From a virus (lineage: Duplodnaviria; Caudoviricetes), in the IMG/VR virus record IMGVR_UViG_3300020021_000010, positions 1-59,410 of that record: 59,410 nt of DNA; one strand, given 5' to 3'. Below the pieces are notes generated by a model that was not told the DNA's origin, did not search any database, and saw nothing but the letters and a program-made list of their open reading frames with translations. This document shows, piece by piece, positions 7,266-59,410 of this stretch. The translations under genes were made by a program, and so were the position numbers. Every line of letters starts with the position of its first letter. The first letter of the stretch is position 1.

Positions 7266-8702
7266 CTAAGCGATTTCGAGGTTGGCTGTGCTCGTGACGC
7301 GGACGTTGATCGTCGTGGCGATACCGTCGATCGTGACCACCATTTCTGCGTTGAGCTGCTTTGCTTTCGCCGTTTCGGGCGTGTTGATCGGCGAGCCGAC
7401 CTTGACTTCGCCAGATTCGATTGCTTTCGCTTCCTTCTGACGTTTGATGATCGCCCCGAGATCCCCCGCGAATTCAGCGATCGAATCGGCGCTGATCCTG
7501 TCGAAGAGGTAGGCCTGGCCCGCTTCTTCGGATTCCGTTTCGATCGCTATTACGGCCCGCACCGGGGGGTACTGGCACAGCAATTCGTTCTTGGATGACG
7601 GAAGGGCGGACGCTGCCCCATAGAGGCAGAGGGTTCCGTTCACTTCGGCGAAACAGTTGATCCCCGATTCTTCCAGGGAGGTCATCTGTGCTTCGCTGTA
7701 GGTATTGACGAATCCCGTGATCTCAGGTCCGAGGGGCCAGTTCACACCTGCCGGGGCCTGGTTGTTGTTACCGGTGCGGGACACCTTCGCAAGCTGCGCG
7801 GCGGCGACGACGGAGGCGGGGATGATGCGTGTCGTGCCTCCGGCTAGTCCCGGTGCGTAGCAGGCCTGCGCGAAGAAGTTGATGCGTTCTGCGACCCCGG
7901 ACGGGATCGCTCCTTTTTCGGATTTCAGGGATGCGGGGGTTGTGCCGACTTCTTCGGCGCCTTTGAGGTCCGCCTGGGCATCGCGTTTGTTTTTCAGGCC
8001 ATGTTCGGCCATCGCTACATGCACGGGTTCTTCACTGTTGCCTGGCACGATCAGTTGCCCGGGGCCGAGGCTCTTGGGTATCGATTCGATGCTGGCGATA
8101 GTCGATTTGGAGTTGACGGTCGGGTTCGTTCCGCTCGCGAGTTTTGTCGCTACGAGTTTCTTGACGAGTTCGCTTTTGCCGGACGTGTATCCGGACCCTG
8201 CCGTTATCACGACATAGGTCTGATGCGCTTCGCCCCACGCCAGTAGTTCCGCCGCCGTGGCGTATTCGCCGCTTGTGGAGAGGACTTCGCCTTCGGGGCT
8301 GAGGATGACTAGCTTGGTCGCGGTTTTCCCAGAGTTTTCGACCACTTCGACTTTTAGGCCGTTTCCGTACGTCCCCCTGTAGAGCGCCGTCACGACGAGT
8401 GTTTTGGCTGTTGAGCCTGCTTCCAGTTCCAGTTTCGCGGCGGCCGGCGTGCCTTCTCCCGAGGTGCGCTTTACGTAGGCGCGTGACCCGCCGAGAGCAA
8501 AGAACCTGTCCAGCGCGTCGAAGACTTTGACGGATTCCCCTTCACGGGGGCCGTACAATTCGATGCCCTCGCTTGGCCCCTGGACGAGCGTAACCGTTTC
8601 CGGTCCGTATGCGGCGGGGGCGACAATGAACAGCGTTCCCATCTGTAGGGAGACGCCCGCTGATTGCTGGGTCCCCCCGCTGCTGACAATAACTCCTGGC
8701 AT
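7266..8702 (-). CDS. Contractile tail sheath protein
   Basis: MPGV start, FF..GGSRAYV, A...G.YGN.L.VEV, L...GINCF motifs typical of sheaths. Confidence 0.85.
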   Translation of the reverse strand: MPGVIVSSGGTQQSAGVSLQMGTLFIVAPAAYGPETVTLVQGPSEGIELYGPREGESVKVFDALDRFFALGGSRAYVKRTSGEGTPAAAKLELEAGSTAKTLVVTALYRGTYGNGLKVEVVENSGKTATKLVILSPEGEVLSTSGEYATAAELLAWGEAHQTYVVITAGSGYTSGKSELVKKLVATKLASGTNPTVNSKSTIASIESIPKSLGPGQLIVPGNSEEPVHVAMAEHGLKNKRDAQADLKGAEEVGTTPASLKSEKGAIPSGVAERINFFAQACYAPGLAGGTTRIIPASVVAAAQLAKVSRTGNNNQAPAGVNWPLGPEITGFVNTYSEAQMTSLEESGINCFAEVNGTLCLYGAASALPSSKNELLCQYPPVRAVIAIETESEEAGQAYLFDRISADSIAEFAGDLGAIIKRQKEAKAIESGEVKVGSPINTPETAKAKQLNAEMVVTIDGIATTINVRVTSTANLEIA

Positions 8703-10341: not shown

Positions 10342-10379
10342 GCTCGCCCCCTTTGGGCTTGTCGTCGTAATCTGGGGGG

Positions 10380-10631: not shown

Positions 10632-11123
10632 TCACAAAAGCGGCGGACGTTCGCTAACCAGAGGCGTCGCAGCAACATCGCCAGAAGCACTCGCTCTATG
10701 CCCACCATGCTGCTCGACCGCCATGTTGTAGCGATCCATCATGTCGAGGATGTCCTGCGCCCGCTGATCGCCGTTCCGTCGACGGAACATGAGGAGCACG
10801 ACGAGACAAAAAATCGCGAAGGCGAAGGCGCCCCACCCTAGCGTCTCCATCTTTGCTCGATTCGCAGCTTCAGGGATTGACGTCGCGGCGACAGTGATCG
10901 CCACGGTCGCAGCGACGCTAAAGGCAGACATCGCGAGGGCGAACCAGGCCGAGCTCTCGATGCGCCCCTTCAGTTCCCGTTTGATGAGCGACTGGACGTG
11001 TTTGTAGTGGTCGTCAGTCATCGCGACCGCAGCCAGTGGGCGCTTGACGCTCAGCAGGTCCTCGGTGCCCGGCGGCGTGACGTTCCGTGCCGGCCTCACC
11101 TCGTGCCCACCTTCGACCTGCAT
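10632..11123 (-). CDS. Two-TM membrane protein (moron)
   Basis: Two hydrophobic helices (AWFALAMSAFSVAATVAITVAA; LGWGAFAFAIFCLVVLLMF). Confidence 0.65.
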   Translation of the reverse strand: MQVEGGHEVRPARNVTPPGTEDLLSVKRPLAAVAMTDDHYKHVQSLIKRELKGRIESSAWFALAMSAFSVAATVAITVAATSIPEAANRAKMETLGWGAFAFAIFCLVVLLMFRRRNGDQRAQDILDMMDRYNMAVEQHGGHRASASGDVAATPLVSERPPLL

Positions 11124-11137
11124 CGGCCGCTCCGTGG

Positions 11138-11437
11138 CTATGCGCTCGCCTCAATGACATGCTCAGCGGGGCTGTATTTGGCCAGCTCCTCGGACCAGTC
11201 CTCGTCCCTGAGAATGCCCGCTGTGATCGCGTTGATCTGAAGGGTGTAGCCGCAGTTGGTGCAGCCAACGAGGAGCACAGGCACGACATTGGTCGTGATT
11301 GGGCCCGTCGGGTTGAGGTTCGGCACCATTCCGAGCCTCCGCAGAGGCGTCCAGAGGTCCGTTTTGCAGACCGGGCACGGCCCGTGGTCCCACTTGTCCG
11401 TAAACCACTGGTTGAGCTTGTCGAGGTCGAGCTCCAT
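11138..11437 (-). CDS. Zinc-ribbon protein (moron)
   Basis: CPVC...W...CTNCGY. Confidence 0.7.
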   Translation of the reverse strand: MELDLDKLNQWFTDKWDHGPCPVCKTDLWTPLRRLGMVPNLNPTGPITTNVVPVLLVGCTNCGYTLQINAITAGILRDEDWSEELAKYSPAEHVIEASA

Positions 11438-11570
11438 GTCCGCCTATTCGCTCGCGTGTTCCATCGATCTGAGGCTACCATTTGCGCCCTCCCGACGTCA
11501 CGTCGGTTCCGTATTGCTCGAATGATCCCACTGCCAGTGCGTCTACCGAAGGTCACGCATAGCGGTAGAG

Positions 11571-14500: not shown

Positions 14501-14687
14501 TTCCGTTGCTCGTAAACCCACCGGTCACGAGGGCGTACTCAGCGGCGCCCAAGAGAACTCGGAACTGGCCTTCTTTCTGCAACGCTTCCGGAGCGGCCTT
14601 CTGAACGGTGATCGTCGTAGCGTTCGACGTGCAGGCTTCGGCGAGCTGCGTGAAGAATGGGTTGGCGAAGAGTTCCGGCAGGCTCAT
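11571..14687 (-). CDS. Large fibre/spike protein with putative beta-helix depolymerase region
   Basis: 1038 aa: Ala/Glu/Thr coiled-coil repeats (E.TRA..AE), HASTHA..GSDP fibre motif, DVR.F...G..DW.AAL start of a pectate-lyase-like region. Confidence 0.65.
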   Translation of the reverse strand: MSLPELFANPFFTQLAEACTSNATTITVQKAAPEALQKEGQFRVLLGAAEYALVTGGFTSNGKTWTVTRGVESTAVSHAQGEEVLHLLTAGSLGSQSDAAAGVPSLRTLGPDAQQAAPGTTKAEAEAGAEVIAEAVAAAGVAVEKGRAEGAESALAVGLGAEITRAEAAEGSNSTAITTEKTRAETAEATKASSTALTTETSARETAVSAEKGARETADSTHAALTTTAHGGIVAGTDSRLTNARTPTAHASTHAEAGSDPLTTADLPSSVVNGSTAVLDVRQFLAGGVVDWAAALKAMEEQRKALLTPLDIALKEGPVLGNKEHVTGNVATFKYHFIFEGCPTITLPVMAEGQYATRFNETAEGVNVNAALYKHPDIILDGDFRIAGSGSGDGGSFMSAYRRTFAVNGVMSGENYKNGVTERGYTDHTFVKGVHTDHTVTGYALQSEEGDGKVIAQVMAFAGKGYLGKHGSGVFACPVSGTHEFDAASFTLLQNHLEGDGPNEVGGKTTSPLLLFRGGVYKVQDSRLYTLANPARPCIEVDDTEVANRATDLTLDMTRFLQRLDEPGAAGEAEPGGNLLGVAIKLKGFSKQSTLKLINVRGECFQQTSAASQFDSRSKIGIRIESDDEGLQTQLTNRRVMIASTDCIIRYNTSTSSWEVRPLGGNNDSVTTHRFSTPNLVLSKFASGSTQAKAAPTTRAAGKHYYRGYAVDDRGRKTNMGAEKLVTLAAGEVPNVEIEAGQACRFILEHGTAEGVFTDWVEIVLPQGQAYLADMGSAIGGAAWSTEGKPTAQTTAAAENNTATGRVLLDSNGVAESFGPEIPTTGSWQKAGDLYTLTPSGIRCVCATSAIANNGGTWIALLVGANELTAGESTVPRESAAATTIAATTKLLRLAFFTARKSETIKTLRVVTTATAAAATPSLIRLGVYSVSEAGALALVASTPSDTTLLAAANTRYSKNLSATWAKVAGSRYAIGLLVVTTAAAPTIAAISSSVGSTEAGESPRLCAAQAEQTDLPAEIEAASLTNSASIPYFSMTP

Positions 14688-42588: not shown

Positions 42589-43590
42589 CTATCGAGTGAA
42601 CACGGAGAACCGTATCACACCCTTCCCGCCCACGTCAAGAGTGCTGGTGCGAGACGTGCGCGCGTCTCTCGCATGGGCGCGCATCTGCCCCTCGAACCGC
42701 GCCCTTCGCGAAGCAACTGGCTCCCCGTAGCGCAGCCCCCGCACGCTCCCCGCGAGTTCCTCAAGATCGGGCCGGTCCACGTACACGGAAGCGGTCGTCT
42801 GCACACTCGCGTGACCCATCAGGGCCTGTGCCGCCCGCAGACCGGCGTGCCTGGCCACGTGATCACCGAAGGCATGGCGAAGTAGATGAGGGTGGACACG
42901 CGTGGCGATACCTGCACGCTCGGCGACGCCCCGGACGACGCGTGCGAGGGCGGTGTGGCTGATCTGGCATGTTCGTGGCCGTTGGATCGGGCTGCTGGTC
43001 TTGTACGTCGCGACGACGTGATGATCAGGGCGGATGGTCGCGCGGATCTCCTCGACGACGGGGGCGAGTTCGGGTAGCACGGGGACCCACCGCTCGTGTT
43101 TGCCCTTCGCGATATCCGCGCTGAACCACACGAACCCCGGCCGCTGGAAGTGGCGTCCTTGGAGCGCGGCGAGTTCGGCTACCCGTGCCCCGGTGCAGAC
43201 ACCGAGCAGGATCATCCACCGCTCCCGCTGGGTCTCGCACGCCGCGATCATCGCCTCGACCTCCCTGCGTGTCAGACGGATCGTCGTCTGCTTGCGCGTC
43301 TTCGTTCGCGCGACCTGCCGCGCCGGGTTATCCACCCGGTGGCCCTCCGTCAGCATCCAGTCGTAGAAGCTCACCAGCACCGAATGCTCGTGCGCGCGCG
43401 TGTTCGGGTGCTCCCATCGTGCGAGCGTCCGCTTCACGTCCTCCCGCACGGCTCCCAACGCGCCGCAGGGCGTGTCCTGGGCGTGGAGTCCGAGCACGCG
43501 CCGGCATCCGCGGACCGTGTTCGGGCTGTTGATCCTCCCGGCCTGCCGCTGGTCGCGCAGATACTCCTCGATCGCATCCTCGAACCGCAT
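42589..43590 (-). CDS. Tyrosine recombinase (XerC/D-like architecture)
   Basis: Catalytic R (TGARVAEL), K (AKGK), HLLRH, MGH, Y; SAM-like N-term; start MRFEDAI. Confidence 0.92.
   Translation of the reverse strand: MRFEDAIEEYLRDQRQAGRINSPNTVRGCRRVLGLHAQDTPCGALGAVREDVKRTLARWEHPNTRAHEHSVLVSFYDWMLTEGHRVDNPARQVARTKTRKQTTIRLTRREVEAMIAACETQRERWMILLGVCTGARVAELAALQGRHFQRPGFVWFSADIAKGKHERWVPVLPELAPVVEEIRATIRPDHHVVATYKTSSPIQRPRTCQISHTALARVVRGVAERAGIATRVHPHLLRHAFGDHVARHAGLRAAQALMGHASVQTTASVYVDRPDLEELAGSVRGLRYGEPVASRRARFEGQMRAHARDARTSRTSTLDVGGKGVIRFSVFTR
42609..42638 (-). promoter_or_regulatory. Putative sigma70-type early promoter
   Basis: TTGACG-18 nt-TACGGT with extended TG, upstream of the cro-like gene, inside the 3' end of the recombinase. 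Confidence 0.6.
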
Positions 43591-43671
43591 TGCGTTGTCC
43601 CTTCCATGGGGGTCGCCTCGCGCGGTATCGTCGGACCCGCATCGAGTGCCTTTTATCCGTCTCGATGTCAC

Positions 43672-43724
43672 GCCCCCGGCTGTTAGAGCAGCGCGGGGGC
43701 ACTTTCTGGCGCGGCACCGTATCA
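43672..43724 (-). promoter_or_regulatory. Extended -10 (TGATACGGT) plus conserved leader hairpin upstream of the recombinase
   Basis: AAGTGCCCCCGCGC-N10-GCCGGGGGC; same arms at 52745-52775. Confidence 0.55.
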
Positions 43725-43956
43725 GGTCGACTCGTTGAGTCCTCTCCAAGCACTAAGACGCGACCCTATCCGCGTTCGGGACGCTTCGCAATAGGCGGAA
43801 CGTCCCGTACTCTCGGCTTAGATACGCTCGCACATGCCGTACGGCCCCGGAGCCCCGCGACACTGACCCCCAGCGGTCGCGGGGCTCCCCAAAACGTCGA
43901 GCAGCCCGAAGGGTTCGCACCGGTATGCTCGACGGGCGCGCCCTCGGGCGTAGCAC

Positions 43957-44028
43957 TGGGGGGTCGTCTAACGGCAAGACACCTGACTTTCCATCATGGA
44001 GATCTCGGTTCGAATCCGAGCCCCCCAG
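43957..44028 (+). tRNA. Atypical tRNA, anticodon UUC (Glu-decoding), U1-A72/G73 acceptor, C37
   Basis: TGGGGGG/CCCCCCA acceptor, GTCT/AGAC D-stem, CCTGA-CTTTCCA-TCATG anticodon arm, CTCGG-TTCGAAT-CCGAG T-arm; no encoded CCA. Confidence 0.85.
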
Positions 44029-44068
44029 CTCTAAAGCACGGCGACCTATCAGTCGATAGACTGGTCAG

Positions 44069-44180: not shown

Positions 44181-44399
44181 AAGCGCCGCTCCGCTCCGAC
44201 CCCTTAACGCAGAGAAGCGCCCCACGTCCGGGGAGACGTGAGGCGCTTCATGGTCTGCTGTTCTCGGCCCGGGAGGAGAGGGAGGGGCCAAGCTTGGGTT
44301 AGTCGTGGAACGGGTCCAGCAAGCACCGCCAGCAGCGGTTGAGCAGCGCGTAGTACACGCGGCTGCGATACAAGACCCGATAGAGCAGGTAGCTCATAG

Positions 44400-44497
44400 T
44401 GCGCCCGGTGGGATTCGAACCCACGACCTCCGGCTTGAAAGACCGGTGCTACTTCCCACACCCCGAAGGTTGCGGTTGACCACTGAGCTACGGGCGC
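44400..44497 (-). tRNA. Atypical 98-nt tRNA, anticodon UUC (Glu), with hairpin insertion in the D-loop
   Basis: GCGCCCG/CGGGCGC-A acceptor, CCGGT-CTTTCAA-GCCGG anticodon arm, GTGGG-TTCGAAT-CCCAC T-arm; extra ~25 nt after AGTGG. Confidence 0.8.
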
Positions 44498-48105: not shown

Positions 48106-48179
48106 CTATCACAGTGCGAGCGGAAAACAGGAAGTACGAAACTGATCTTTCTGTCCGACCGCTCACGCATAATGTCAAC

Positions 48180-49016
48180 ATGAACCGACTGAGCATCGAG
48201 CGGCGCACACAGATCATCGCAATGCTCACGGAGGGGAACAGCATGAGGGCGACGGCCCGCATGGCTGGGTGCTCGTTCAACACCGTCTCAAAGCTGCTGC
48301 TGGACGTGGGCGCGGCCTGCACCGAGTACCAAGACCGCACACTGCGCGACCTTCACTGCACGACGATGCAATGCGATGAGATATGGAGCTTCGTCGGCTC
48401 GAAGGCCAAGAACGTGCCCGACGACCGCAAGGACGAGTTCGGAGTCGGGGATGTCTGGTGCTGGGTGGCGATCGACGCCGACTCAAAGCTCGTGCCGTCG
48501 TGGCTGCTGGGGGAACGGAAGACCGCCGACTGCATCGCGTTCCTGGACGATCTACGCAACCGGCTCCGCTACCGCATCCAGCTCTCCACAGACGCGCACG
48601 CGAGCTACAAGGGCGCCGTGGGGCTCGTGTTCGCCAGCGACGTGGATTGGGCGCAGGTCATCAAGGAATACAAGACCACGACCGTCGCGCCGGGTCGCTA
48701 CAGCCCACCAGCCTGCACGGGCGTCCGCGTCAAGCCGCAGCTCGGCGACCCGGATCTCGCCAAGGTGAGCACCAGCTATATCGAGCGGCAGAACCTCACC
48801 ATGAGGATGAACATGCGCCGGTACACGCGGCTAACAAACGCGTTCTCCAAGAAACTAGAGAGCCACGCCGCAGCGGTCGCGCTGCACTTCATGCACTACA
48901 ACTTCGCCCGTCCGCACAAGACGCTCGCCAACCCTTACCCGCGCACTCCCGCGATGGCCGCAGGGATCGCAGATCACATCTGGACGCCCGTTGAGATCGC
49001 CGAACTCTCAAACTGA
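48180..49016 (+). CDS. IS1-family DDE transposase (single ORF)
   Basis: N-term HTH, QCDEIWSFV, LSTD, IERQNLTMR...RRYTRLTNAFSKK, YNF.RPH; stop lies within the right IR. Confidence 0.9.
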   Translation: MNRLSIERRTQIIAMLTEGNSMRATARMAGCSFNTVSKLLLDVGAACTEYQDRTLRDLHCTTMQCDEIWSFVGSKAKNVPDDRKDEFGVGDVWCWVAIDADSKLVPSWLLGERKTADCIAFLDDLRNRLRYRIQLSTDAHASYKGAVGLVFASDVDWAQVIKEYKTTTVAPGRYSPPACTGVRVKPQLGDPDLAKVSTSYIERQNLTMRMNMRRYTRLTNAFSKKLESHAAAVALHFMHYNFARPHKTLANPYPRTPAMAAGIADHIWTPVEIAELSN

Positions 49017-49544: not shown

Positions 49545-49694
49545 TCACGACGCCGGCTCCAACTTCACGCCGTCACGGTCGACCGTGACCTTGCCGAGCG
49601 GGAGGTCGCCTTCTTCGGTCGCGTCGTTCCACAGCAGGACTTCAGCCGTCGGCTTTGCCTTCTGCAGGTGCTTGATCAGCTCGGCGGCCGTCAC
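49545..49694 (-). CDS. 49-aa hypothetical protein
   Basis: MT..ELI..L....P.AEV pattern, GTGA-coupled to the upstream stop. Confidence 0.55.
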   Translation of the reverse strand: MTAAELIKHLQKAKPTAEVLLWNDATEEGDLPLGKVTVDRDGVKLEPAS

Positions 49695-50251
49695 GACTGC
49701 CCCACAACAAGCACGACCCAGCGGCCCCGCTCTGAGTGCGTGGCCTTCCGGACCTCCAGCTTGCTCGACGGCGTAACAGCGCCAGCGAAGCGCGCGTAGA
49801 GCGTCTGGCGTTCAGGTTCATCGGTCGGTGGCCAGCCACTGCCGCCTTCGGCGAGGGCAGCGGCCTGCAGCCGTTCATCCGCGCGCCTGGCCAGCAGCGC
49901 CGTTCGTCGCCAGAAGTGCACGCTGATGACGTGCCGGTGCGTGCCGGCACGGGCGAGCGCGAAGACCCTGCCGGCCTTCGTCGACGTCGTAGTGCGTCGC
50001 GCCAACGCCCCGACAGCAATCGGGATCAGCACGGTCACGATCAATTCCGCAGTGCTCTGATGCAGCACCACCCCGAGCGCACTCGCCACAGCCGTCACGG
50101 CAGCGACGGCGCCTGCGATCACGGCAGTCGGCTCGGAGAACCACACTTCCTGCAGCGCGGCGATCAGGCGTTCCTTGACGAGCACCAGGAGACCGATGAG
50201 CGCCGACGGCAGCTTGACGAGCTTCGTGACGAGCTGCTTGGCGGCCGTCAC
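49691..50251 (-). CDS. Holin-like membrane protein
   Basis: EP.AVI.GAV.AV...A.ALGV.L....E....VL..I.VG.LAR helices, in lysis cassette. Confidence 0.55.
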   Translation of the reverse strand: MTAAKQLVTKLVKLPSALIGLLVLVKERLIAALQEVWFSEPTAVIAGAVAAVTAVASALGVVLHQSTAELIVTVLIPIAVGALARRTTTSTKAGRVFALARAGTHRHVISVHFWRRTALLARRADERLQAAALAEGGSGWPPTDEPERQTLYARFAGAVTPSSKLEVRKATHSERGRWVVLVVGQS

Positions 50252-50979
50252 GCTCCCGCGCTCCCATAGACCTGCGTCCAATCTTCGGTTGCCCGCGGAG
50301 CGACCGAGATGTAGCCGCCGGGGGCGAGTTCGAACGCTGCCTTCACCGACGAGCGGAAGGACATCTGCGTCGGGTTGACGTGCTGGGGCAGCCCGAACCA
50401 TGCGGGCAGCGCGAAGTCCGCGACGGTGACGTTGCCGCGCTTGTAGCCGCACTCCTGCACAGGGTCACCGACCTCGACAATCACCTTCTGCTTCTTCGCC
50501 GCGTTGATGACCGACCGCACTGTGCTGACGACGTTGGGGTCGACCGTCATCTCGAGCATCTCGTGCGAGGCGACTTCGGCCGGGTCGACGCCGTCTTCAC
50601 GCGACGTCTTCACGCCGATCTTCGACAGCGGCGTCAGAGCACCGGCGCGCAGGCCTCGCGACGAGCGTCCCGACGCTTTCTTCGGGCCCGTCGAGTGGCG
50701 GTCAAACGACGCGTCTTCGTGGTATCCGAGCGCGCCCGGGTCGTCGCAGACGTCGAGCAGTTCGATATGCCACGAGTCGTCTGGCACCTTCGCGCCGCGC
50801 GGCACCGCCTGCACCGTGATCGCCGGCGCGAGATCCTGCGTGACCCAGCACGACTCGTTGAAGTCATCGGCGGCCTGCATCGACAGGCCCGCGACGAGAT
50901 CCTTGAACTGCTCGGCGGTGAGCGTCCCTGCGCTCGTGTTGTCCTGCACCGTTATGAGCTGCGGCTTTGAAGCAGACAT
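50248..50979 (-). CDS. Zincin-like metalloprotein
   Basis: GALGYH, SHEMLE..VDP, EVGDPV, V.DF.LP.WF. Confidence 0.6.
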   Translation of the reverse strand: MSASKPQLITVQDNTSAGTLTAEQFKDLVAGLSMQAADDFNESCWVTQDLAPAITVQAVPRGAKVPDDSWHIELLDVCDDPGALGYHEDASFDRHSTGPKKASGRSSRGLRAGALTPLSKIGVKTSREDGVDPAEVASHEMLEMTVDPNVVSTVRSVINAAKKQKVIVEVGDPVQECGYKRGNVTVADFALPAWFGLPQHVNPTQMSFRSSVKAAFELAPGGYISVAPRATEDWTQVYGSAGA

Positions 50980-51009
50980 GTGGCTCCTTTCGAGAGCGGA
51001 GAGGTTGAT

Positions 51010-52065
51010 TCAGGACGCTGCTAAAGCCGCGAGAGCGGCAGAACCGAGCTTCGGTGCGAGCGTGTGCTTCCAGACGCCGTACTGGTTCGTGCCCGAGTCC
51101 TCGGCGTTGATGAGGTTGTAAACGATCAGCATCGCGACGTAGCCCTGCTGCTCGCACCACTCACCGAGGGAGGTGATGTTCGCCGCCTGCTGAGCTTCGG
51201 TCCACGCCTGCGAGTCACCGTCGGCCCCGGTGCCGGTTGGGAAGCCGACCTCGGTGATGTAGACCGGGAGCCCGGTTTCCTTGTGGGCGGCTTCGATCAT
51301 TGCGCGGTTGCCGTTCGCGCCACCAGCCTGACCCTTTTCCCCGCCGTACGGATGGACGGTCACACCGTCGCAGTAGGCGTAGCCGCCGGCTTTCTTGACG
51401 CCGGGACCGAACCTGCTCGGCGGGTTTTCCACCGAGCCGCCATCCCACGAGGCGAGCACCTTGCAGCCCGTGCCCTTCAGCGCTTCGTGCGTCGCCTTCA
51501 ACAGAGTCGTGTACGCGGTGAAGTTCTGCGGGTCCGTCCAGAACCAGCTCCCGCCGGGCTCGTTCAGAACCTCGATCGCGGTCAGCCCGAACTTCTTCAC
51601 AGCAGCCAGCACTTCGGCGGCGTAGCTCGCGGGGTTGATGCTCCCGATCGTCCCGCCTTCGCCGAAGATCACCGTCGCCGGAGTAACGCCGTGCTGCGCC
51701 GCTTCGGCGATATGCGCGGTCGTGCCGGTGCGGAAGCGCTTGATCCCAGCCGCAGCCATCTGCGGGAAGATCGCGGGCCAGCCCCCGATGTCAACGCCGA
51801 CGATCAGCTTGCCCGGTTCAACCGGAGGCACGGGTGGAGCGGGAGGCGTCGGAGGTGCCGGCGGGGGCGTGGGCGGCGCCGGAGGCACAGGCGCCGGGGC
51901 CGAGAGTCCCTTGAGCACGCTCGCCACGTCCGCCTTCGTCAACCGGAGTTCGGGCTTGTACTGCGCGTTGCCCGTCAACTTCACGACCGCCGACCCATCA
52001 GTAGCGAGGGTCGTGACGGTGGTGAGGTTCTTCAGGTCCTTCGAGATTGCGAGTAGCTCGGCCAT
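51010..52065 (-). CDS. Clan GH-A glycoside hydrolase with Pro-rich linker
   Basis: EVLNEP (acid/base), VTVHPY, YITEVG (nucleophile). Confidence 0.8.
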   Translation of the reverse strand: MAELLAISKDLKNLTTVTTLATDGSAVVKLTGNAQYKPELRLTKADVASVLKGLSAPAPVPPAPPTPPPAPPTPPAPPVPPVEPGKLIVGVDIGGWPAIFPQMAAAGIKRFRTGTTAHIAEAAQHGVTPATVIFGEGGTIGSINPASYAAEVLAAVKKFGLTAIEVLNEPGGSWFWTDPQNFTAYTTLLKATHEALKGTGCKVLASWDGGSVENPPSRFGPGVKKAGGYAYCDGVTVHPYGGEKGQAGGANGNRAMIEAAHKETGLPVYITEVGFPTGTGADGDSQAWTEAQQAANITSLGEWCEQQGYVAMLIVYNLINAEDSGTNQYGVWKHTLAPKLGSAALAALAAS

Positions 52066-52140
52066 CAGTAATCCCTTCGCTATACGACGTATTGGATAGG
52101 TGGGTGCTGCGTAGGCGTGCCGGTAGCGGGAAGCGTCGTC

Positions 52141-52716
52141 CTACCGCCCCCCGTCGCGCTCCCGGCGGCAAGTGCGACACGCGCGATAGCCATTCCACCA
52201 ATAGGTATTGGCCTCGTCGAATGGGTGCCCGCGCTTGCAGTGGGTCTGTCTCGCGTGGCGAGCGCCCATGCCCTCTCCCCGCAAAATATTCTCCCGCTTG
52301 GTGACAGGCTCTAGATGCGCTGGGCCGTGATCGTCGGGGGTCACCTTGACGCAGGCACGGTTACGGCAGAGATGGTCGAGCTCAAGGCCCTCTGGGATCG
52401 GCCCCACAAGTAGCTCGTAGGCAAAGCGGTGAGCGACGACCTGGCGCCCAGAACTATCAGCGATATAGCTGTAACCGGCTTTGAGCTTTGCGGTGCGAAC
52501 CCAGCACGACCCCAGCTCGGGACGATGCCCTGGCGTCGGTCCGTTCTTGTCCACCTTGAGCCAGAAACGCTCCTCCGACGATAGGGTGGAGCTAAGCACG
52601 CGGCCACCCACCGACGGGTCGCCGTGCCTTTCCCAGCGGCCATAATGCGCACGACACCATCCCCGCGCCAACGCCGCCCTATCGCACCCATCGATCGAGC
52701 AAGTACCCTTCGGCAT
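52141..52716 (-). CDS. HNH homing endonuclease
   Basis: CSIDGC...ARGWC..HY, RFW.KV, AHRFAY, LDHLC.N..CV, HLE.VT..EN, THC..GH. Confidence 0.9.
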   Translation of the reverse strand: MPKGTCSIDGCDRAALARGWCRAHYGRWERHGDPSVGGRVLSSTLSSEERFWLKVDKNGPTPGHRPELGSCWVRTAKLKAGYSYIADSSGRQVVAHRFAYELLVGPIPEGLELDHLCRNRACVKVTPDDHGPAHLEPVTKRENILRGEGMGARHARQTHCKRGHPFDEANTYWWNGYRACRTCRRERDGGR

Positions 52717-52744
52717 GTCGCACCTCCTAGTTAGGCGTGGCCAT

Positions 52745-52793
52745 GCCCCCGGCGTCCAACCGCGCGGGGGCACTTCTATTGGTGCGAATTATA
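52745..52793 (-). promoter_or_regulatory. -10 TATAAT plus conserved leader hairpin upstream of the HNH gene
   Basis: TATAAT at 52793-52788; AAGTGCCCCCGCGC-N8-GCCGGGGGC. Confidence 0.6.
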
Positions 52794-52799
52794 CCCGAC

Positions 52800-53936
52800 C
52801 TAGTAGATACCAAGATGGTGAAAATCTGCGATCCGAGCGGCCTCGCGCTTGCCGTGCGCAAGCCAGAGACCGCAGAGGGTGTGGTAGCTCGGGGGTGTTG
52901 CGTGCCCGAGCGTCGGTGGTGTCAGACGGCAGTGACGCCGGTCGATGTCCGCGTGGAGCTCGGCACGCAGTTCGTACGCCTTGTTGAGTTCCCTGTGCCA
53001 GCGCGCCACCGCCTGCGCGCGCGTTGGAGCACTCCCGGTGAACGCCGACTCGGCAACTTCGAGGCGGCTCATGTCAGTCGTGCTGACACCGTTGAACCCG
53101 CGGTCGGTGTACTGCCACAGGTCCACACCACCCCAGCCACACGGGATCGCAAGCCTTGAACGGGAGCCGTATCCGCTGACCCAGCGTTTCGCGTGCGGAG
53201 GTCGCCAGCAGCCCAATACAGGGTTCCACCACCACGCTCCCGTGTAGATCGCGGGCCACCTTCCGGTGAGGGAATGCACCGTGTCGATCCACGACGTGAT
53301 CCATGCCCGGGCACCCGTCGTCGTGCAGTTCGGGTGAAGCGGCCACTCCGCATCCCCGACGGGGAGGAATGAGTGTCCGACGAGGCCGATCGCCTTCAGC
53401 CTCGCCGCGAACAGCCGGGCCTCTCCCGCGCTCGACGTGCGACAGACTTCGAGGAAGTCGTAGCCGCCTGGGGTCACACCGGCAGCTCGAGCGGATTTCG
53501 CCATCCCCGACGCCGTGGAGTCCACGTACGCGGTGCCCTGGATCGTCTTTAGGTACGCGAACGGATGCCCGTGCGCCTTGACCGGCGCCCAGCCGTAGAA
53601 CGGGTTGTTGTTGCTCACGTCCGGGCCGGTCGCATGACTCACCGCGCCCTGGGAGACCAGGACGGCGAACCGAGCGGTCGGCGCTTCGACCACGGCGCTG
53701 GGAGCGCATGCCCCGAGTTCGCCGTGGCCAGCTTCGATTTCCGCCTTGACCTTCGGACCGCAACTCGGTGCTTCGCCGGATGGGGGCTTGACGGCGCCAG
53801 GCTTGGGGGCCAGCGGCTTGAGCGGAGCCGGAGCGCTCGGCTTGGACGGCGCGGTTTTGCCGCAACCGACGACGACTATCGCTACGAACAAGACAGCGAT
53901 AGTCGCCCAGTAGCTGGCGAAGAACAGGCGTCTCAT
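52800..53936 (-). CDS. GH25 muramidase endolysin with N-terminal signal / lipobox
   Basis: GPDVS, FAYLK..QG..YVD, DAE, IYTG, WVSGY, LWQYT; hydrophobic N-term ending VVGC. Confidence 0.85.
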   Translation of the reverse strand: MRRLFFASYWATIAVLFVAIVVVGCGKTAPSKPSAPAPLKPLAPKPGAVKPPSGEAPSCGPKVKAEIEAGHGELGACAPSAVVEAPTARFAVLVSQGAVSHATGPDVSNNNPFYGWAPVKAHGHPFAYLKTIQGTAYVDSTASGMAKSARAAGVTPGGYDFLEVCRTSSAGEARLFAARLKAIGLVGHSFLPVGDAEWPLHPNCTTTGARAWITSWIDTVHSLTGRWPAIYTGAWWWNPVLGCWRPPHAKRWVSGYGSRSRLAIPCGWGGVDLWQYTDRGFNGVSTTDMSRLEVAESAFTGSAPTRAQAVARWHRELNKAYELRAELHADIDRRHCRLTPPTLGHATPPSYHTLCGLWLAHGKREAARIADFHHLGIY

Positions 53937-53947
53937 ATGGACCTCGA

Positions 53948-54292
53948 TCAGTCGGAGGGATGCGTAGCGCTCTGATGCGCCACGCGGATGTGCTCGACGG
54001 TCACCGCTTCACCGGGCTTATGAGCGACCGCCGGGTGGTGGCCTTCGTGGTGGCAGGCCCGGTAGCCGGTCCCCGGAACTGGGTGCCCCCACCGTGAGCA
54101 GCCATCGACCTGACATTCCATGTGCTTATGCACGCGTCTCGCCCACGGCCGCACGACCCGTCGGATCACGACGAAGATCAGCAGCAGCTCCAGCAGCTTG
54201 AAAAGGGTTCCACCCCATTCGCTGCTGAAGAAGTTGTAGAGGCTCGGACGCAGCCACAGTTCGCTCACCGGGCCGAGGAGAACGGCGAGCAT
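53948..54292 (-). CDS. Membrane protein (lysis cassette)
   Basis: TM segment then H..C...GC.R.GH. Confidence 0.5.
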   Translation of the reverse strand: MLAVLLGPVSELWLRPSLYNFFSSEWGGTLFKLLELLLIFVVIRRVVRPWARRVHKHMECQVDGCSRWGHPVPGTGYRACHHEGHHPAVAHKPGEAVTVEHIRVAHQSATHPSD

Positions 54293-54609
54293 CAGCACTT
54301 CCGGTGCTTCGGCTGCTCCCCCTCGATCGTCACGTACGCACCAACCTGTTCGCGGAGGTTCGCCAACGGCGCGATAAGGGGCGTTGCGGTCGAAGGGGGT
54401 GTGCGGGGCGCCGGCGTGAGCAGCTCCGCGACGTCGGCCATGATCTCCGTGAGGTGGTGCTGGCCTCTCAACCCACGGCTCTGGATGGTGCACGTCGCCG
54501 CTTCGTCGCTACCTACGCGGCCGTGGTCGTCGATCACGAAGTACGTGTTCACGCCGATCGCCAACAGCAAGATCACCAGGCCAGCCGTGTAGAAGTTGTT
54601 GCGGGTCAT
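54292..54609 (-). CDS. Membrane protein (lysis cassette)
   Basis: N-terminal TM, two Cys incl. C-terminal Cys. Confidence 0.5.
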   Translation of the reverse strand: MTRNNFYTAGLVILLLAIGVNTYFVIDDHGRVGSDEAATCTIQSRGLRGQHHLTEIMADVAELLTPAPRTPPSTATPLIAPLANLREQVGAYVTIEGEQPKHRKC

Positions 54610-54968
54610 CTCACGCCTCCCAGGTGGGGGCCGACAAGAGCCCCGGCGATAGCAGCAACCCCGAGCCAGAACTCGCGGCGGGAAAGCTGCTTGGACACCG
54701 CGTCCGTCGCGGACTGCGCTAGTGCCTGGGAGACCTCCTCGGCGGTCTTCATCTTCGCCAGCACCTCGTCGATCCGGCGCTCCACCCCAGCCACCCTCGT
54801 CCCGAGAACCTCCTGGGCTTTCGCGGAGCGTTCGATCGACCCGTTGATCGCATTCAGGCGCCGGTCGTGCTCGTCGATCCGTCCGTCTACGACCTGTTCG
54901 CGGCGTCCCCTCTGCTCTGCTAGCTGGATCGCCTTCGCTTCTCGGCCCTGATCTGTCTCGGGAGGCAT
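54606..54968 (-). CDS. Coiled-coil + C-terminal TM protein (XhlA-like)
   Basis: Heptad region followed by FWLGVAAIAGALVG. Confidence 0.55.
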   Translation of the reverse strand: MPPETDQGREAKAIQLAEQRGRREQVVDGRIDEHDRRLNAINGSIERSAKAQEVLGTRVAGVERRIDEVLAKMKTAEEVSQALAQSATDAVSKQLSRREFWLGVAAIAGALVGPHLGGVR

Positions 54969-55058
54969 TCTCAGGGTGCCGGCGGGTTGGGTGCATGGGT
55001 CACTTGAAGACCTCCAGGGGATTCCGCTGATTTGACTGCTACCTGTATGCTCTGCGGC

Positions 55059-55343
55059 ATGTCGGATGTCGATGGGGAGATCGGGAAAGCAGCACCAGAC
55101 ATGCCGGCACTGCGCATGGCGCTTGAGCGTGTACTGCCAGCATGTCCGGCCTGCGGTGAGAGGAACTGGTCGCTGCCTGAGGGGACCAATTGGGTCGCTG
55201 GACTTTCTGACGCTGCCGGTGACGTAGACCTCGCGATGGGCTTTGAGGTGGTCGCGGCAATCTGCGAATCCTGCGGATATGTTTCGCTACACCACGCCGG
55301 GAAACTGCTTACTGGTGCCAACCCTGCATCCGATGGCACATGA
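55059..55343 (+). CDS. Zinc-ribbon protein (moron)
   Basis: CPACG...W...CESCGY; TATGCT 7 nt before ATG. Confidence 0.7.
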   Translation: MSDVDGEIGKAAPDMPALRMALERVLPACPACGERNWSLPEGTNWVAGLSDAAGDVDLAMGFEVVAAICESCGYVSLHHAGKLLTGANPASDGT

Positions 55344-55732
55344 CCGCCGCTGAGCCACCGGGACCCGATTCCTCGAAGCATTGGTACCAGCGAGCGTCAT
55401 CGCGCATCCTCATCGTTCTGGTACTCGCCGTGCTGGTCGTGGCCTGGCGTGCGGGCACCTTTGACCACGCCCTCGTCAACGTCGGCCTAAACGCAAAGCC
55501 CTGCGCTCGCAACGGGTTCGGTGCCACGTTCTGTGGCCAGGAACTAGCCGAAGCCCAGGAACGCCAAGCGCAGTCCGCCAAAGAAAGCGAAGCCTCAGTC
55601 GTAAAGGGCGAAGAAGAGGGCGCAAGGATCAAGCGCGAAGGCGAAGAAACGGATGCAAAGCTCCAACGCGAAAGCGAAGAAGCTCAGCGGCAAATCGGCG
55701 AGCCCGAAACGCCAGCGGAAGTCTCAGGATGA
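55340..55732 (+). CDS. Single-TM protein with acidic coiled tail (moron)
   Basis: ILIVLVLAVLVVAW TM; C.RNGFGATFCG; ATGA-coupled. Confidence 0.65.
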   Translation: MTAAEPPGPDSSKHWYQRASSRILIVLVLAVLVVAWRAGTFDHALVNVGLNAKPCARNGFGATFCGQELAEAQERQAQSAKESEASVVKGEEEGARIKREGEETDAKLQRESEEAQRQIGEPETPAEVSG

Positions 55733-55768
55733 GGCGGCTCGGAACGTGGCACCGAACCCGTTGCGAGC
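55505..55768. repeat. Perfect 27-bp inverted repeat (55505-55531 / 55742-55768), 210-bp spacer
   Basis: gctcgcaacgggttcggtgccacgttc vs gaacgtggcaccgaacccgttgcgagc. Confidence 0.95.
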
Positions 55769-56205
55769 TCGCGCTTGCCGCGACGGCCGATGCCCGTCCG
55801 AGGGCAGTCTTCTGCGGCCAAGAACGCGTCGAACGTAGACGGACCTCCAGCGAAAGCGAGGAAGCTCGCTACGGTCGCATCTTCATCACGATCACAACAG
55901 GGGCCATGAGCGCCATCTACCGCGAGAGCCCTCGCAACTGGACGTCTCGACGAGAGGCCACCTGTGAGCTGGCTGACCTAGTCGCAGGCGAGGCCGTGAG
56001 CTATCAGCTCGACGACATCAACACCTTCAGCCCCGGGTTTGTTGGGATGGGGGCAAAATGGTACGTCGGGCGTTATCACTGCATATCCGAAGCGGCACCA
56101 GAGCCGCCGGGTTTCGACCGCGGCGAAGTCGAGACCTGCTCACACAGGGGCCACTACGCCAACAGTGTCAGATTCTGGAGCCTGGAAACCGGCGAAACCC
56201 TTTAG
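55729..56205 (+). CDS. Hypothetical moron protein with scrambled N-terminus
   Basis: ATGA-coupled; Cys-containing C-terminal part; 5' end built from pieces of the upstream gene. Confidence 0.45.
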   Translation: MRRLGTWHRTRCELALAATADARPRAVFCGQERVERRRTSSESEEARYGRIFITITTGAMSAIYRESPRNWTSRREATCELADLVAGEAVSYQLDDINTFSPGFVGMGAKWYVGRYHCISEAAPEPPGFDRGEVETCSHRGHYANSVRFWSLETGETL

Positions 56206-56266
56206 GGCGAAGCCTGAAGAGCATTTCACAGGCGCCCTCGTGCCACGTCGCACGAGTGCTAATTCG

Positions 56267-56974
56267 TCAGCGCGATAGCGTAGATACCCAGACGTTCACG
56301 GTATTTGCGCCGTCCCCGTTGTTCACCTTGAGCTTTTCGCCCGGAGGAACGACCACGGCCAGGTTTGCTTCGGTCCCTGCCACCGACATTGACAAGGTGC
56401 CCGAGACGTTCACGCCTCCGACTTCTATAACGGGGAAGTTTTCGGTACCGACTCCGACCACTTTCACGCTGACCAGCGTCTCGCGCGACGCGGAGTATTC
56501 GCCGGATTCGTAGGTTTTGACGGCAGCTGCGACTTTGCTTACTGCCGTGTATTGATGTTCCCGCTGCGGCTCCCCAGCGACGATGAGCCAGTTGGCGGTG
56601 CCATCCGCCTGGAGAATGACGTGCTGCCACGGCAGTAGCTTGATCGTGGCGGCAGCATGGATGAAGTCTCCGTAGATCGTTCCGCCGTGGGTGCTGGCGT
56701 TGACCGTGACTTCTTTCGCAGCTTCGGTGCAGTAGGCGGCGATCCGCGCATTTATCGTCGGTGCGGGGAGTGTCAGGGTGCCCGGTTCGGTGACCATTAC
56801 GTAGGCGGAGCCGTTGACGCCTTCCGTGCTGCCTTTCTGTACCACGATGCCCAGCAGCAGTTTGTCGACATCTTCCCCGAGCGAAGCAAACCCCGTGCCG
56901 ATTTCGTGCCCAGGGTTTTTGCCGGTTAGCATCCGTAGCGCGAAGTTTTTGCTTGTCGCGTAGTTCAATGCCAT
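56267..56974 (-). CDS. Putative tail fibre protein
   Basis: After baseplate genes; TLTLPAP and L.ADG..NW.I fibre-like motifs; start MALNYATS. Confidence 0.6.
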   Translation of the reverse strand: MALNYATSKNFALRMLTGKNPGHEIGTGFASLGEDVDKLLLGIVVQKGSTEGVNGSAYVMVTEPGTLTLPAPTINARIAAYCTEAAKEVTVNASTHGGTIYGDFIHAAATIKLLPWQHVILQADGTANWLIVAGEPQREHQYTAVSKVAAAVKTYESGEYSASRETLVSVKVVGVGTENFPVIEVGGVNVSGTLSMSVAGTEANLAVVVPPGEKLKVNNGDGANTVNVWVSTLSR

Positions 56975-57789
56975 CAGGTCACCTCCGCTAAGGTCAGTGT
57001 TTCGATTTCGCCCGCGATGTTTTCGATCAGGCGCGCGAACTCGTCGATGTACGGGTCGGTCTGCAACGGTTCTTCGGTCAGCACATATTCGGGCACAAGT
57101 CCTGCCGGCTTGACGCCTTTGACGTTCGCGTCGAGCCGCCCTATGCTTCCTTCGGGGGTCAACTGCTGCGGATGAACGAGTACCGTGAAGTAGTACGGGT
57201 TGGATTCCCCGTTGGCCTTCTCGCGCGGCAGGGGTTCGTACTGGGTGGCGATGTTCACGAGCGTCAGGTGCGCGGTCGTGAACGATGGCCCGGACGTGAA
57301 GTTTGACGTGGCTTCGTAGCACAGCAGCCCCTCGGGGGATTCGTGCCGCACAAGTTGCCCGGCCGTGAACGCAGTGTTCGGCGCCCAAAACCGCGAGATG
57401 GCTCGTTCGATAGCGGCCTTGACCGACGCTTCGGTGCCGCGTTCCAGTCCGCTCTCGGCTTTCACCAACGCGCGGGCTTCCGCTTCGGACGCACCGATCG
57501 GGATCTGGACCCCGACGAACATTCCGAGATATGGGAGGTACTGCGCCGGGCACAGGCGGGGGTCGAAGATCCGGCCGTATCCAGGTATGTATCCGGGCTC
57601 CCCGTCGAAGCCCTCGTCTTCGGCGACTTCCATCACCGGCTGTGCCATCGCGCCGACGGCCTGGCACAGTAGCGCGAGGTCCGGGGTCATCCACGGAGCC
57701 AGTTTCTCTTCCAGGCGTTTACCAACTATGTCCGCTTCTACCGGCTCTAAGGCTTCCCGATCTTCATCCAGCAGTAGTAGGAGGGTCAT
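56974..57789 (-). CDS. Baseplate protein (P2 gpI-like)
   Basis: DP..CP..YLPYL.MFVG, RGT, KPAGL. Confidence 0.75.
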   Translation of the reverse strand: MTLLLLLDEDREALEPVEADIVGKRLEEKLAPWMTPDLALLCQAVGAMAQPVMEVAEDEGFDGEPGYIPGYGRIFDPRLCPAQYLPYLGMFVGVQIPIGASEAEARALVKAESGLERGTEASVKAAIERAISRFWAPNTAFTAGQLVRHESPEGLLCYEATSNFTSGPSFTTAHLTLVNIATQYEPLPREKANGESNPYYFTVLVHPQQLTPEGSIGRLDANVKGVKPAGLVPEYVLTEEPLQTDPYIDEFARLIENIAGEIETLTLAEVT

Positions 57790-57797
57790 CGAGGCCC

Positions 57798-58424
57798 CTA
57801 GAGCGTCAGGCCGTATAGCAGCTCGTAGGTCCAGGATGAGGAGTTGCTGTGAGTGACCGAGAGGATGAACTCTCTCGGTATGAACAGGTTCGCCGTCTGC
57901 GCGTATACCTTGGGCACCGTTGTGACAGCGCCTTCTTCGGCGGCATTCGTCAAGCCGGGGCCGGCCTCAAACCAGTGGATGTTCCCTTCTTCGGTCGGCG
58001 TGATCGGCACGAACCGCGCGAGGGCGCCGTTGTTCGCACCTATCGAGACCTGCAATGTCCCGGTGCCTACGGGACCAGTCTCCACGAGACGGATGAATAG
58101 CTTGCTGAAGTTGTAGTTGATCTGCACCGGGCTGCTCGCAGATCCCGTCCGCGCTTCCGACGCGAGCGCCACCTCGTCATACTGGTTGTTCCGCTGCCGA
58201 TCGATGGTGCCGAATTGGTTGAGCAATCCATTCGTGACAAGCGCGGTTTCGTTGGCTGCCGCGCCATCTTCGTCGGCAGCCGTCTGCGGCTGCCATCCGG
58301 CGCCGTCCCAGACCATTACTCCACCGGCCTCTATCGCCTGTCCCGGGTACGGGTGGCCGCCTGGCTGGACTTTGGACGCAATCGTTTCTTCTTCGCCTTT
58401 AGCGTTCACGCGTGTTGAACCCAT
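57798..58424 (-). CDS. Hypothetical virion protein
   Basis: AAGGAG RBS; lies between J-like and I-like genes. Confidence 0.55.
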   Translation of the reverse strand: MGSTRVNAKGEEETIASKVQPGGHPYPGQAIEAGGVMVWDGAGWQPQTAADEDGAAANETALVTNGLLNQFGTIDRQRNNQYDEVALASEARTGSASSPVQINYNFSKLFIRLVETGPVGTGTLQVSIGANNGALARFVPITPTEEGNIHWFEAGPGLTNAAEEGAVTTVPKVYAQTANLFIPREFILSVTHSNSSSWTYELLYGLTL

Positions 58425-58443
58425 GCCCAACTCCTTACGTCAG

Positions 58444-59410
58444 TTATCCCGAGGACCCTACGATGGTTCCAGATGTCGCTTCGGGCAATGTCACAATTCC
58501 CGATAACGTGATATCGGCCGTACCCGTAGGCGTGGCGCTAGTTCCCATTTTAAGTCCGGTCGAACCCGCGAAGCAATAAGCCACCCCCGGCGTGCTCTCG
58601 ATCGCCTTGAGCACGAGGTTGTACCGGACGATCTTTTCGTTGGCCCACTGCCGCGGGCCAGTCGTGGACGCCGTTGGGTTGCCCCACCACTTCTTGCTAA
58701 TCAAGGTTTCGACGGAAGCCTTGACGCTAGCTACGACCGATTCGGGAGCATAGCCTTCTTCTACATGGATCTTGAAGGTGACATAGATTTTCTCATAGGC
58801 TGGCGCTTCGACGGGTGCTATAAAGTTCAGCGCAAGGAATTTGGCGACCCACGCTTGAAGAGCTTCCATATCTGGCCCACTGAGAGCGCTGCCTTCCGGG
58901 TCGGTAACCCACGTCGTGCAGCAGTTCGGTACGCCTTCTTCTTTCGTTTCGGCGTTGTACAGGTCGATGGCAGTTGCACGACCGACGACGATGCCGGCGG
59001 GCAAGATCGAGGACGGGACCCCGAGCAGGAACGGAGCGAAGTCGGCGGCGTTGACTGGGCGGGGTGCCTGAAGCTGGAGCTGCGCGGCGAGACGAATGAG
59101 GTATGCCGCGTCTTCTTCCTGCTCCGCCCCCCCGGTGGTTTCGCCGATCAGTTCGACGGCGGTTACCCAGTCGTATGGGTTAACTTGGAGCGCGACCCCT
59201 TCGACTTTGTTGTATTCCGTGCCGCGCGCGAGAGCTACTACCTGGAGTTCGACGCTCGTCGCTTTGGCTGGGACTTCAGTCGCGTTTTCGACGTAGAAGC
59301 CGAGTCCGCCGGCTTCTATCTGCGTGCCCGCTTCGATCGTGCGGACACCTTCGGCGGGGACCATCGTCCATGTTGTCTTGGCGGTCGCCGATGCCCCTTC
59401 GTTGTATGGG
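58444..59410 (-). CDS. Baseplate J-like protein, C-terminal part
   Basis: I.AGT, V.A..RG..YN, GGA..E.D..Y..RL, P...DF motifs; frame continues across the junction to ATG at 250. Confidence 0.88.
   Translation of the reverse strand, partial: PYNEGASATAKTTWTMVPAEGVRTIEAGTQIEAGGLGFYVENATEVPAKATSVELQVVALARGTEYNKVEGVALQVNPYDWVTAVELIGETTGGAEQEEDAAYLIRLAAQLQLQAPRPVNAADFAPFLLGVPSSILPAGIVVGRATAIDLYNAETKEEGVPNCCTTWVTDPEGSALSGPDMEALQAWVAKFLALNFIAPVEAPAYEKIYVTFKIHVEEGYAPESVVASVKASVETLISKKWWGNPTASTTGPRQWANEKIVRYNLVLKAIESTPGVAYCFAGSTGLKMGTSATPTGTADITLSGIVTLPEATSGTIVGSSG

Follow-up and report, generated by a model that had tools for sequence, protein, structure and literature searches.

A 98-nt gene for a tRNA with the anticodon UUC, carrying a C(UUCG)G-capped hairpin in its D-loop as a fifth arm, was found on the minus strand of a temperate phage, and the same architecture recurs in a clade of bacteria, in metagenomes and on a second phage. 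The phage gene is a real and structurally conserved five-armed tRNA(UUC) gene, and its family is undescribed in the literature that we searched. On balance we consider it likely that the phage gene encodes a working five-armed tRNA-Glu(UUC) that retains its arm, reads GAA as Glu and supplies the translation of the tail module.

The phage genome and its gene content

The stretch of DNA analysed here (the window) is a complete IMG/VR virus record of 59,410 bp, with the majority of its genes on the minus strand. Its structural genes include those for a tape-measure protein, a tail sheath, a major head protein, a protease and a portal, and it further encodes an HTH/M78 (ImmA-like) regulator, an IS1-family transposase and a tyrosine integrase. 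Given the integrase, the ImmA-like regulator and the sheath and tail genes, this is a temperate phage with a contractile tail. The features referred to below are as follows:

7266..8702, minus strand: tail sheath gene (phrog_23), with 39 GAA and 2 GAG codons
27486..28817, minus strand: RtcB RNA ligase (phrog_1075, E 2.8e-69)
42589..43749, minus strand: tyrosine integrase (PF00589, 77.9 bits)
43957..44029, plus strand: canonical-shape tRNA-Glu(UUC) (ARAGORN; Rfam 52.2 bits)
44400..44497, minus strand: five-armed tRNA(UUC) gene, 98 nt (Rfam RF00005, 63.2 bits; family model R1, 97.8 bits)
44437..44439, minus strand: anticodon UUC (sequence and Rfam alignment), in a 7-nt loop CUUUCAA identical in the host copies
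44456..44475, minus strand: extra arm in the D-loop (sequence; the helix covaries across 16 distinct family members)
48114..49016, plus strand: IS1-family transposase (PF03400), a host marker

The IS1 transposase is 85-89% identical to many soil metagenome proteins, and the six organism-named matches among the best 120 listed all come from Solirubrobacteraceae MAGs, at 85-87% identity. It therefore points to Solirubrobacteraceae as the putative host, in agreement with the tRNA evidence given below. The transposase gene (48114-49016) sits on the minority strand of the phage genome. Searches for close relatives of the tRNA region, the portal or RtcB in INPHARED found none, and a portal query against 401 genomes of the host order, meant to reveal a related prophage, had no match above 30% identity.

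Structure of the five-armed phage tRNA

The original prediction of a tRNA(UUC) with a UUCG-capped D-loop hairpin at 44400-44497 was confirmed. The RF00005 match at 44497..44400 spans the full model (positions 1-71) and scores 63.2 bits against a gathering score of 29, the hairpin falls exactly at 44475-44456, and a whole-window Rfam scan returned just the two tRNAs (63.2 and 52.2 bits). The approximately 25 extra nucleotides described after the conserved GG correspond to a 27-nt insert in the Rfam alignment, at a D-loop site with one consensus nucleotide, between G18G19-U and the 3' strand of the D-stem. The extra arm is thus located in the D-loop beta region, after GG-UCAA and between positions 20 and 21, and comprises eight pairs, including one A.G, under the cap C(UUCG)G. 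The acceptor (7 bp), anticodon (5 bp) and T (5 bp) arms are intact in the alignment, as had been described, and U8, A14, G18G19, U33 and the T-loop UUCGAAU are all present; the D-stem is weaker than described, with three clean pairs plus a C.U, or alternatively a C-G pair with a bulged U. The variable loop measures 5 nt, the discriminator is A and CCA is not encoded. The anticodon UUC reads GAA and probably also GAG.

A resemblance of the 5' end to Arg and Lys tRNAs, likewise part of the prediction, extends to the whole acceptor stem, which is identical to that of the host tRNA-Arg(ACG/CCG) in genome G001 and of tRNA-Lys(UUU) in related genomes. In silico, the five-arm cloverleaf has an energy of -42.0 kcal/mol and an alternative fold is the minimum at -43.8 kcal/mol, 1.8 more stable. 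The five-arm fold is more than chance, since a family model built on relatives (R1) scores the phage copy 97.8 bits. ARAGORN gave only a forced 72-nt reading of the phage copy, at 44399-44470, and a scan for a promoter-like or terminator-like site for the gene found none. We also considered a group I intron and rejected it: group I introns of bacterial tRNA genes are ribozymes of ~200 nt or more in the anticodon loop, and the insert is 27 nt long and in the D-loop.

The other tRNA of the phage (43957-44029, plus strand) has the canonical Glu shape, with the loop CUUUCCA (C37) and one C.U in the anticodon stem, and tRNAs from genomes of the host order match it at 76-81% identity. Its position is between the integrase gene and the five-armed tRNA gene, and every neighbouring gene is on the other strand. 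A single phage carries two tRNA architectures for one anticodon, UUC.

A five-armed tRNA family in a bacterial clade

An insert unique to this genome was named in the prediction as part of the outcome that would count against it; inserts of this type were instead found at at least 27 host loci, in 51 metagenome stretches and in a second phage, G408. A pattern scan of species-representative genomes returned, among the matches listed, at least 27 loci with a 96-nt tRNA that has the same acceptor stem, the lead-in AGYGGUCAAC, a 7-bp hairpin and the loop CUUUCAA. The labels of 20 of these loci read Solirubrobacterales (10), Solirubrobacteraceae (1) and uncultured Actinomycetes/Actinomycetota/Actinobacteria (9), and by such record titles the family would be native to soil actinobacteria of the Solirubrobacterales/Solirubrobacteraceae. 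All 51 of the 51 matching stretches in a metagenome scan were of the five-armed type, and in one metagenome variant the stem sequence is entirely different yet fully paired. The 4-nt loops of the family are mostly UUCG, UACG or UCCG, with UUUG in one member and UCAC in one. Host genes fall into a type I and a type II variant, which differ in the anticodon stem and the T stem.

Distribution within one order

The order that contains G001 was examined by several routes. Full-length five-armed copies were found by BLAST in 13 of 201 genomes and by covariance model in at least 4 of 151 (27 candidates per genome scored), and an exact 3'-half pattern recovered five-arm types in 22 of 301 genomes, 10 of the 22 being verified at full length. 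Together with three BLAST-only genomes this amounts to at least 25 of 301, and the family marks a clade within the order rather than the whole order. The unpublished genomes G041, G062 and G180 enter these tallies only, G180 being among the 39 genomes with a non-five-arm match in the 3'-half pattern scan. One genome, G005 (Solirubrobacteraceae), has a 102-nt UUC tRNA whose D-loop insert is both longer and different and whose discriminator is G (L089:2106-2207, the same as L234), as well as a normal type II five-armed tRNA (L235).

The phage copy shares the traits of this family, namely a hairpin of ~7 bp with a 4-nt loop after GG-UCAAC in the same alignment columns, the loop CUUUCAA with anticodon UUC, discriminator A and a GCGCCCG-type acceptor. 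It is 83-84% identical to the nearest host genes (type II; BLAST), it has identical stretches of 23 nt at the 5' end and 15 nt around the anticodon loop in common with host types, and it deviates from the host copies in two extra nucleotides after the hairpin, the absence of a clean 13-22 pair and the A.G in the hairpin. Its hairpin stem has no pair-for-pair sequence in common with the host stems, yet it is paired. In IMG/VR the phage variant was matched by neither exact nor gapped DNA patterns, metagenome scans gave no near relative, and broader D-loop-insert patterns in IMG/VR retrieved unrelated cases only.

The extra helix covaries

Covariation was assessed on an alignment of 16 distinct sequences, made up of the window, phage G408, nine type I and four type II host variants and one metagenome variant. 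Five of the seven pairs of the extra helix change on both sides and one on one side only, and the seventh deviates only via the A.G of the two phage copies. In the extra helix 98.2% of cells are paired, and no other helix of the molecule varies as much or is compensated as well. For the structure as a whole the covariation score is 0.283, against 0.120 for shuffles (0 of 500 attain 0.283), and sliding the 3' partners by 1 to 3 columns lowers it to 0.077 or less. Relatedness among the sequences inflates the significance given by the shuffle control; it does not affect the slide control or the fact that the stem sequence has been replaced completely in three lineages. Judged by this comparison of sequences, the extra arm is a conserved structural element. 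It would project from the D-loop beta region just past G18G19, where the D-loop/T-loop elbow need not be disturbed.

Hosts depend on the five-armed tRNA and lack splicing enzymes

Genome G001 is a complete chromosome of 2.63 Mb with 48 Rfam tRNA matches that cover every expected anticodon. It has a canonical Glu(CUC), and its sole intact UUC tRNA gene is the five-armed one, accompanied by a decayed UUC copy (L381). A canonical Glu(UUC) is present in 17 of 17 fetched genomes of the same order that lack the five-armed type, and likewise in G018, and an extra, low-scoring UUC tRNA-like sequence, not of the canonical Glu type, occurs in 2 of the 22 five-arm genomes (L394, L395). By gene content the five-armed tRNA replaces canonical tRNA-Glu(UUC) in its clade, and these hosts depend on it for GAA.

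Two readings of the insert had been offered, a retained fifth arm, with protein docking or protection against nucleases as conceivable roles, and an intron-like element that is excised, the halves being sealed by the phage RtcB; the covariation and the lack of RtcB and endonuclease in the hosts bear out the former, and the latter did not hold up. The phage does encode an RtcB, and archaeal tRNA genes are known to carry introns in the D-loop. However, the tRNA-intron endonuclease domain (PF01974) is found neither in the phage record, where the prediction had recognised no splicing endonuclease either, nor in any of five five-arm hosts (0 of 5; archaeal control genomes positive), and RtcB (PF01139) is missing from the same five hosts (0 of 5; control genomes positive), which need the five-armed tRNA for GAA. 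Moreover, a compensated stem with a mostly UNCG-type tetraloop is the signature of a structural element and not of a bulge-helix-bulge junction. The phage RtcB is 45-49% identical to RtcB of other phages; no RNA-repair or RNA-processing families were found among its neighbours, and no link between it and the D-loop hairpin was found.

Contigs from RNA libraries

Contigs from soil metatranscriptomes (4 of 4 runs, from 4 studies) read through the hairpin of the host copy, the only copy represented; their flanks are unlike the reference, and they may stem from precursor RNA or contaminating DNA. No joined form occurs in the contigs of these four RNA runs, contigs being prone to drop rare forms and standard RNA-seq capturing few mature tRNAs. 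Stretches of the host locus that these contigs do not cover carry no weight either way. Because of the covariation, the host dependence, the lack of RtcB and endonuclease and the unjoined RNA contigs, we regard an intron sealed by RtcB as very unlikely. The arm is most likely part of the working tRNA rather than spliced out, as far as sequence data can tell, and the hairpin would accordingly be kept in the mature tRNA. Each of the five five-arm hosts has one GluRS-family gene (PF00749), and a dedicated second GluRS was therefore rejected; charging with Glu by the single host GluRS would fit the codon behaviour described below.

Other phage copies

Ten sheath-related viral records were searched whole with the family model. 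Two, G408 and G406, were positive, and the remaining eight, several of them fragments, had no five-armed copy. The copy in G408 (82.8 kb), detected only by covariance model, is a 96-nt five-armed tRNA scoring 103.5 bits. It belongs to an array of about 20 tRNAs, with His and Asp on either side of it and a canonical Glu(CUC) further on. The upper part of its hairpin, including the A.G, is common to the window; the lower stem is different and compensated, as are two pairs of the acceptor. G406 (56.7 kb, sheath 53% identical) has a 119-nt UUC tRNA-like gene (L348:1501-1619, record positions 9204-9322). The D-loop of this gene contains a structured insert of 41 nt and no GG, its T-loop is AGUGGCAA, a perfect 11-bp inverted repeat on its flanks lengthens the acceptor stem, and it goes unrecognised by the Rfam tRNA model.

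These copies bear on whether the phage gene is a captured host tRNA gene that is decaying and non-functional. Its weakened D-stem, the A.G in the hairpin and the two extra nucleotides could be read as decay, as could the uniqueness of the phage variant in the collections searched and the far more aberrant version in G406. Against this, all five helices are paired through changes on both sides relative to the host copies, the A.G is common to the G408 copy and so conserved rather than random damage, and the anticodon loop, the T-loop, the GG and the acceptor are intact, which makes decay quite improbable in our view.

Many viral tRNA genes in IMG/VR (L005-L050), some from giant-virus records, have inserts of 15-45 nt, mostly in the anticodon-loop region; three (L008, L028, L042) combine a small D-loop hairpin with a 7-bp palindromic anticodon stem.

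GAA behaves as glutamate and is concentrated in the tail module

Over 62 crude gene calls of the phage, GAA makes up 455 of 1062 Glu codons, and in the host loci around the five-armed tRNA it makes up 27%. Usage differs between the modules of the phage genome:

Tail module: 263 GAA to 123 GAG, 68% GAA (263/386)
Head module: 57 GAA to 135 GAG, 30% GAA
Early genes: 53 GAA to 208 GAG, 20% GAA
Sheath gene: 39 GAA to 2 GAG, 95% GAA

The GAA-rich tail module occupies 49691-59364 and 869-14687, and further genes in it with a strong bias are 58444-59364 (24:3) and 56267-57694 (18:3). GC3 is equal across the tail, head and early modules (0.75-0.78), CAA/CAG has no tail-module bias and AAA/AAG follows weakly. 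Related sheath genes have 33-43 GAA to 1-5 GAG in 7 of 8 cases.

The rarity of GAA/GAG interchange in sheath genes and host orthologs raised the question of a reassignment of GAA to another amino acid. We rejected it as the main reading: GAG is the commonest non-identical partner of GAA in host orthologs (389 of 774), with Asp next, and in 130 distant sheath homologs (<40% identity) the 39 GAA columns hold 10.8% E and 11.5% D, over backgrounds of 4.1% and 5.9%. By these comparisons of sequence, GAA behaves as Glu. The HExxH glutamate of the phage M78 peptidase is encoded by GAG and is uninformative on the meaning of GAA. As to the exchange deficit itself, observed/expected values for GAA/GAG in host orthologs (84 loci around the five-armed tRNA, a subset of L051-L235) are 0.21-0.45, as against 0.5-1.1 in other two-fold families, among which Lys AAA/AAG is also depressed (0.51-0.69); the deficit persists in orthologs that are 50-70% identical (0.23), and next-base context has a modest effect on it.

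With the five-armed and the canonical-shape tRNA(UUC) both expressed during infection, the phage would raise the GAA-decoding capacity available to its tail module, to the presumable benefit of tail-gene translation. The codon-supply idea rests on correlation, and the tRNAs are probably used for the GAA-rich tail genes; expression of the head genes is late as well, yet they favour GAG, and this counts against it. The body of the tRNA has none of the D-arm features recognised by GluRS (U11-A24, U13.G22 and a missing 47), which counts against charging with Glu, although the hosts have just one GluRS-family gene.

The hairpin stands at position 20, at which the D-loop is inspected both by ArgRS and by the GatB tail of the amidotransferase. 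The D-loop arm could accordingly act as an identity switch in an Arg/Lys-type body recruited for GAA, letting GluRS in and shutting out ArgRS, LysRS and GatCAB, a proposal that we hold to be distinctly unlikely. Were it true, tRNA architecture would be a host-range factor, and possession of both architectures would let the GAA-laden tail genes be translated in either type of host.

Integration and defence at the tRNA locus

The five-armed tRNA lies 650 nt from the start of the tyrosine integrase gene, and it might mainly be part of an attachment site, with the phage copy keeping the host five-armed gene intact in the lysogen. Host genome G001 offers a parallel in a 13.4-kb island directly downstream of its five-armed tRNA gene (L401, 686500-700400), which ends in a decayed tRNA copy near 13500-13601 of L401; bounded in this way by the tRNA gene and a decayed copy, the island indicates that at least one element integrates at the five-armed tRNA gene. 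The identical 23-nt 5' stretch in the phage and host genes would also suit such a role. However, att cores are normally exact 3' segments, whereas the phage carries the entire gene, with no more than 83-84% identity to the closest host type. None of the 84 host loci around the five-armed tRNA has a homolog of the phage integrase, which resembles the integrase of the G001 island in the catalytic motif only; neither a prophage form nor attB was found in the 401 genomes and these loci, and in G408 the five-armed tRNA sits in a tRNA array. Relatives of the integrase in IMG/VR are at most 48% identical, none of them with a five-armed tRNA. We therefore consider attachment unlikely, though conceivable, as the main role; it is compatible with a working five-armed tRNA-Glu(UUC) and does not exclude it, and on sequence grounds a part for the phage tRNA in attP is possible.

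The G001 island contains a tyrosine integrase (2322-3413), a SIR2-like gene (7022-8611), DUF6615 and HEPN, and looks like a defence island that uses the five-armed tRNA gene as its attachment site. Phage strategies that employ tRNAs and RNA repair against anticodon nucleases are known, and the two phage tRNA(UUC) together with RtcB might replace or repair a host tRNA-Glu(UUC) cut by such a nuclease. This would account for an RtcB where there is no need for splicing and for a pair of tRNAs that share an anticodon but not a build, the canonical-shape one having the unusual C37, and the five-arm locus of G001 adjoins SIR2-like and HEPN genes of defence type. Set against it are the lack of an identified nuclease or target, the codon bias as a simpler reason for the tRNAs, and the position of RtcB, 16 kb from the tRNA and without RNA-repair neighbours; counter-defence of this kind is, to our mind, rather improbable.

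Comparison with known tRNAs

To our knowledge, the elongator tRNAs of textbooks are cloverleaves of four arms in which only the variable arm may be longer. A full-text literature search brought up no tRNA from bacteria or phages that keeps a hairpin in its D-loop, and matching passages of a 2020 review of non-canonical tRNAs (PMC7609411) and of PMC7590224 describe no D-loop-arm tRNA. Like canonical bacterial tRNA-Glu(UUC), the five-armed tRNA has the anticodon UUC in the loop CUUUCAA, and it is the only GAA decoder in its hosts; it departs from it in the additional D-loop helix of 7-8 bp and in its length, 96-98 nt as against 72-75. Its acceptor and D-arm are of the GUAGCUCAG type, as in Arg, Lys and Val tRNAs, whereas canonical Glu tRNAs in the same genomes have a GUC..GAC D-arm. 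An attempt to trace the body to one of these three was given up, as it is 75-88% identical to all of them.

Class II tRNAs (Leu, Ser and bacterial Tyr) are likewise five-armed and ribosome-compatible, with a retained extra stem-loop, but their arm stands between the anticodon and T arms rather than between D-loop positions 20 and 21. Archaeal tRNA genes with bulge-helix-bulge introns have in common with the present genes that extra sequence interrupts the D-loop; here, by contrast, the genes belong to bacteria and phages without a splicing endonuclease, the hosts are without RtcB, and the insert covaries and is capped by a tetraloop. As with phage tRNAs that match codon usage, the codon is far more frequent in the phage tail genes than in host genes, but here the tRNA has the host's non-canonical five-armed architecture, and the phage has two structurally different tRNAs for the one anticodon.

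The conserved, covarying D-loop arm belongs to a natural tRNA on which its hosts rely as their one decoder of GAA, and of which at least two phage genomes have acquired a copy. If the arm is retained, the ribosome, EF-Tu, RNase P, the CCA-adding enzyme and GluRS must tolerate or exploit a D-loop helix on the elbow side. Such a tRNA could serve as a natural scaffold for tagged or orthogonal tRNAs, and it makes a change of amino-acid identity of a tRNA body testable. A host-specific tRNA architecture combined with an extreme, module-specific GAA bias is also a clean test case for the codon-supply idea.

Annotation of five-armed tRNAs

On five-armed tRNAs (L230, L235, L300, L314-L317, L360), ARAGORN reports tRNA-Pro(GGG) or an undetermined tRNA with a 4-base anticodon, or misses the gene. 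Standard annotation therefore misreports the GAA decoder, and annotated genomes of the clade and its phages will seem to be without one. Two further G001 genes are atypical: a 90-nt tRNA-like gene (L301) that ARAGORN calls Ile(GAU) and Rfam scores at 28.2 bits, below threshold, and a second Arg(UCU) (L299, 35.3 bits) with an atypical D-arm.
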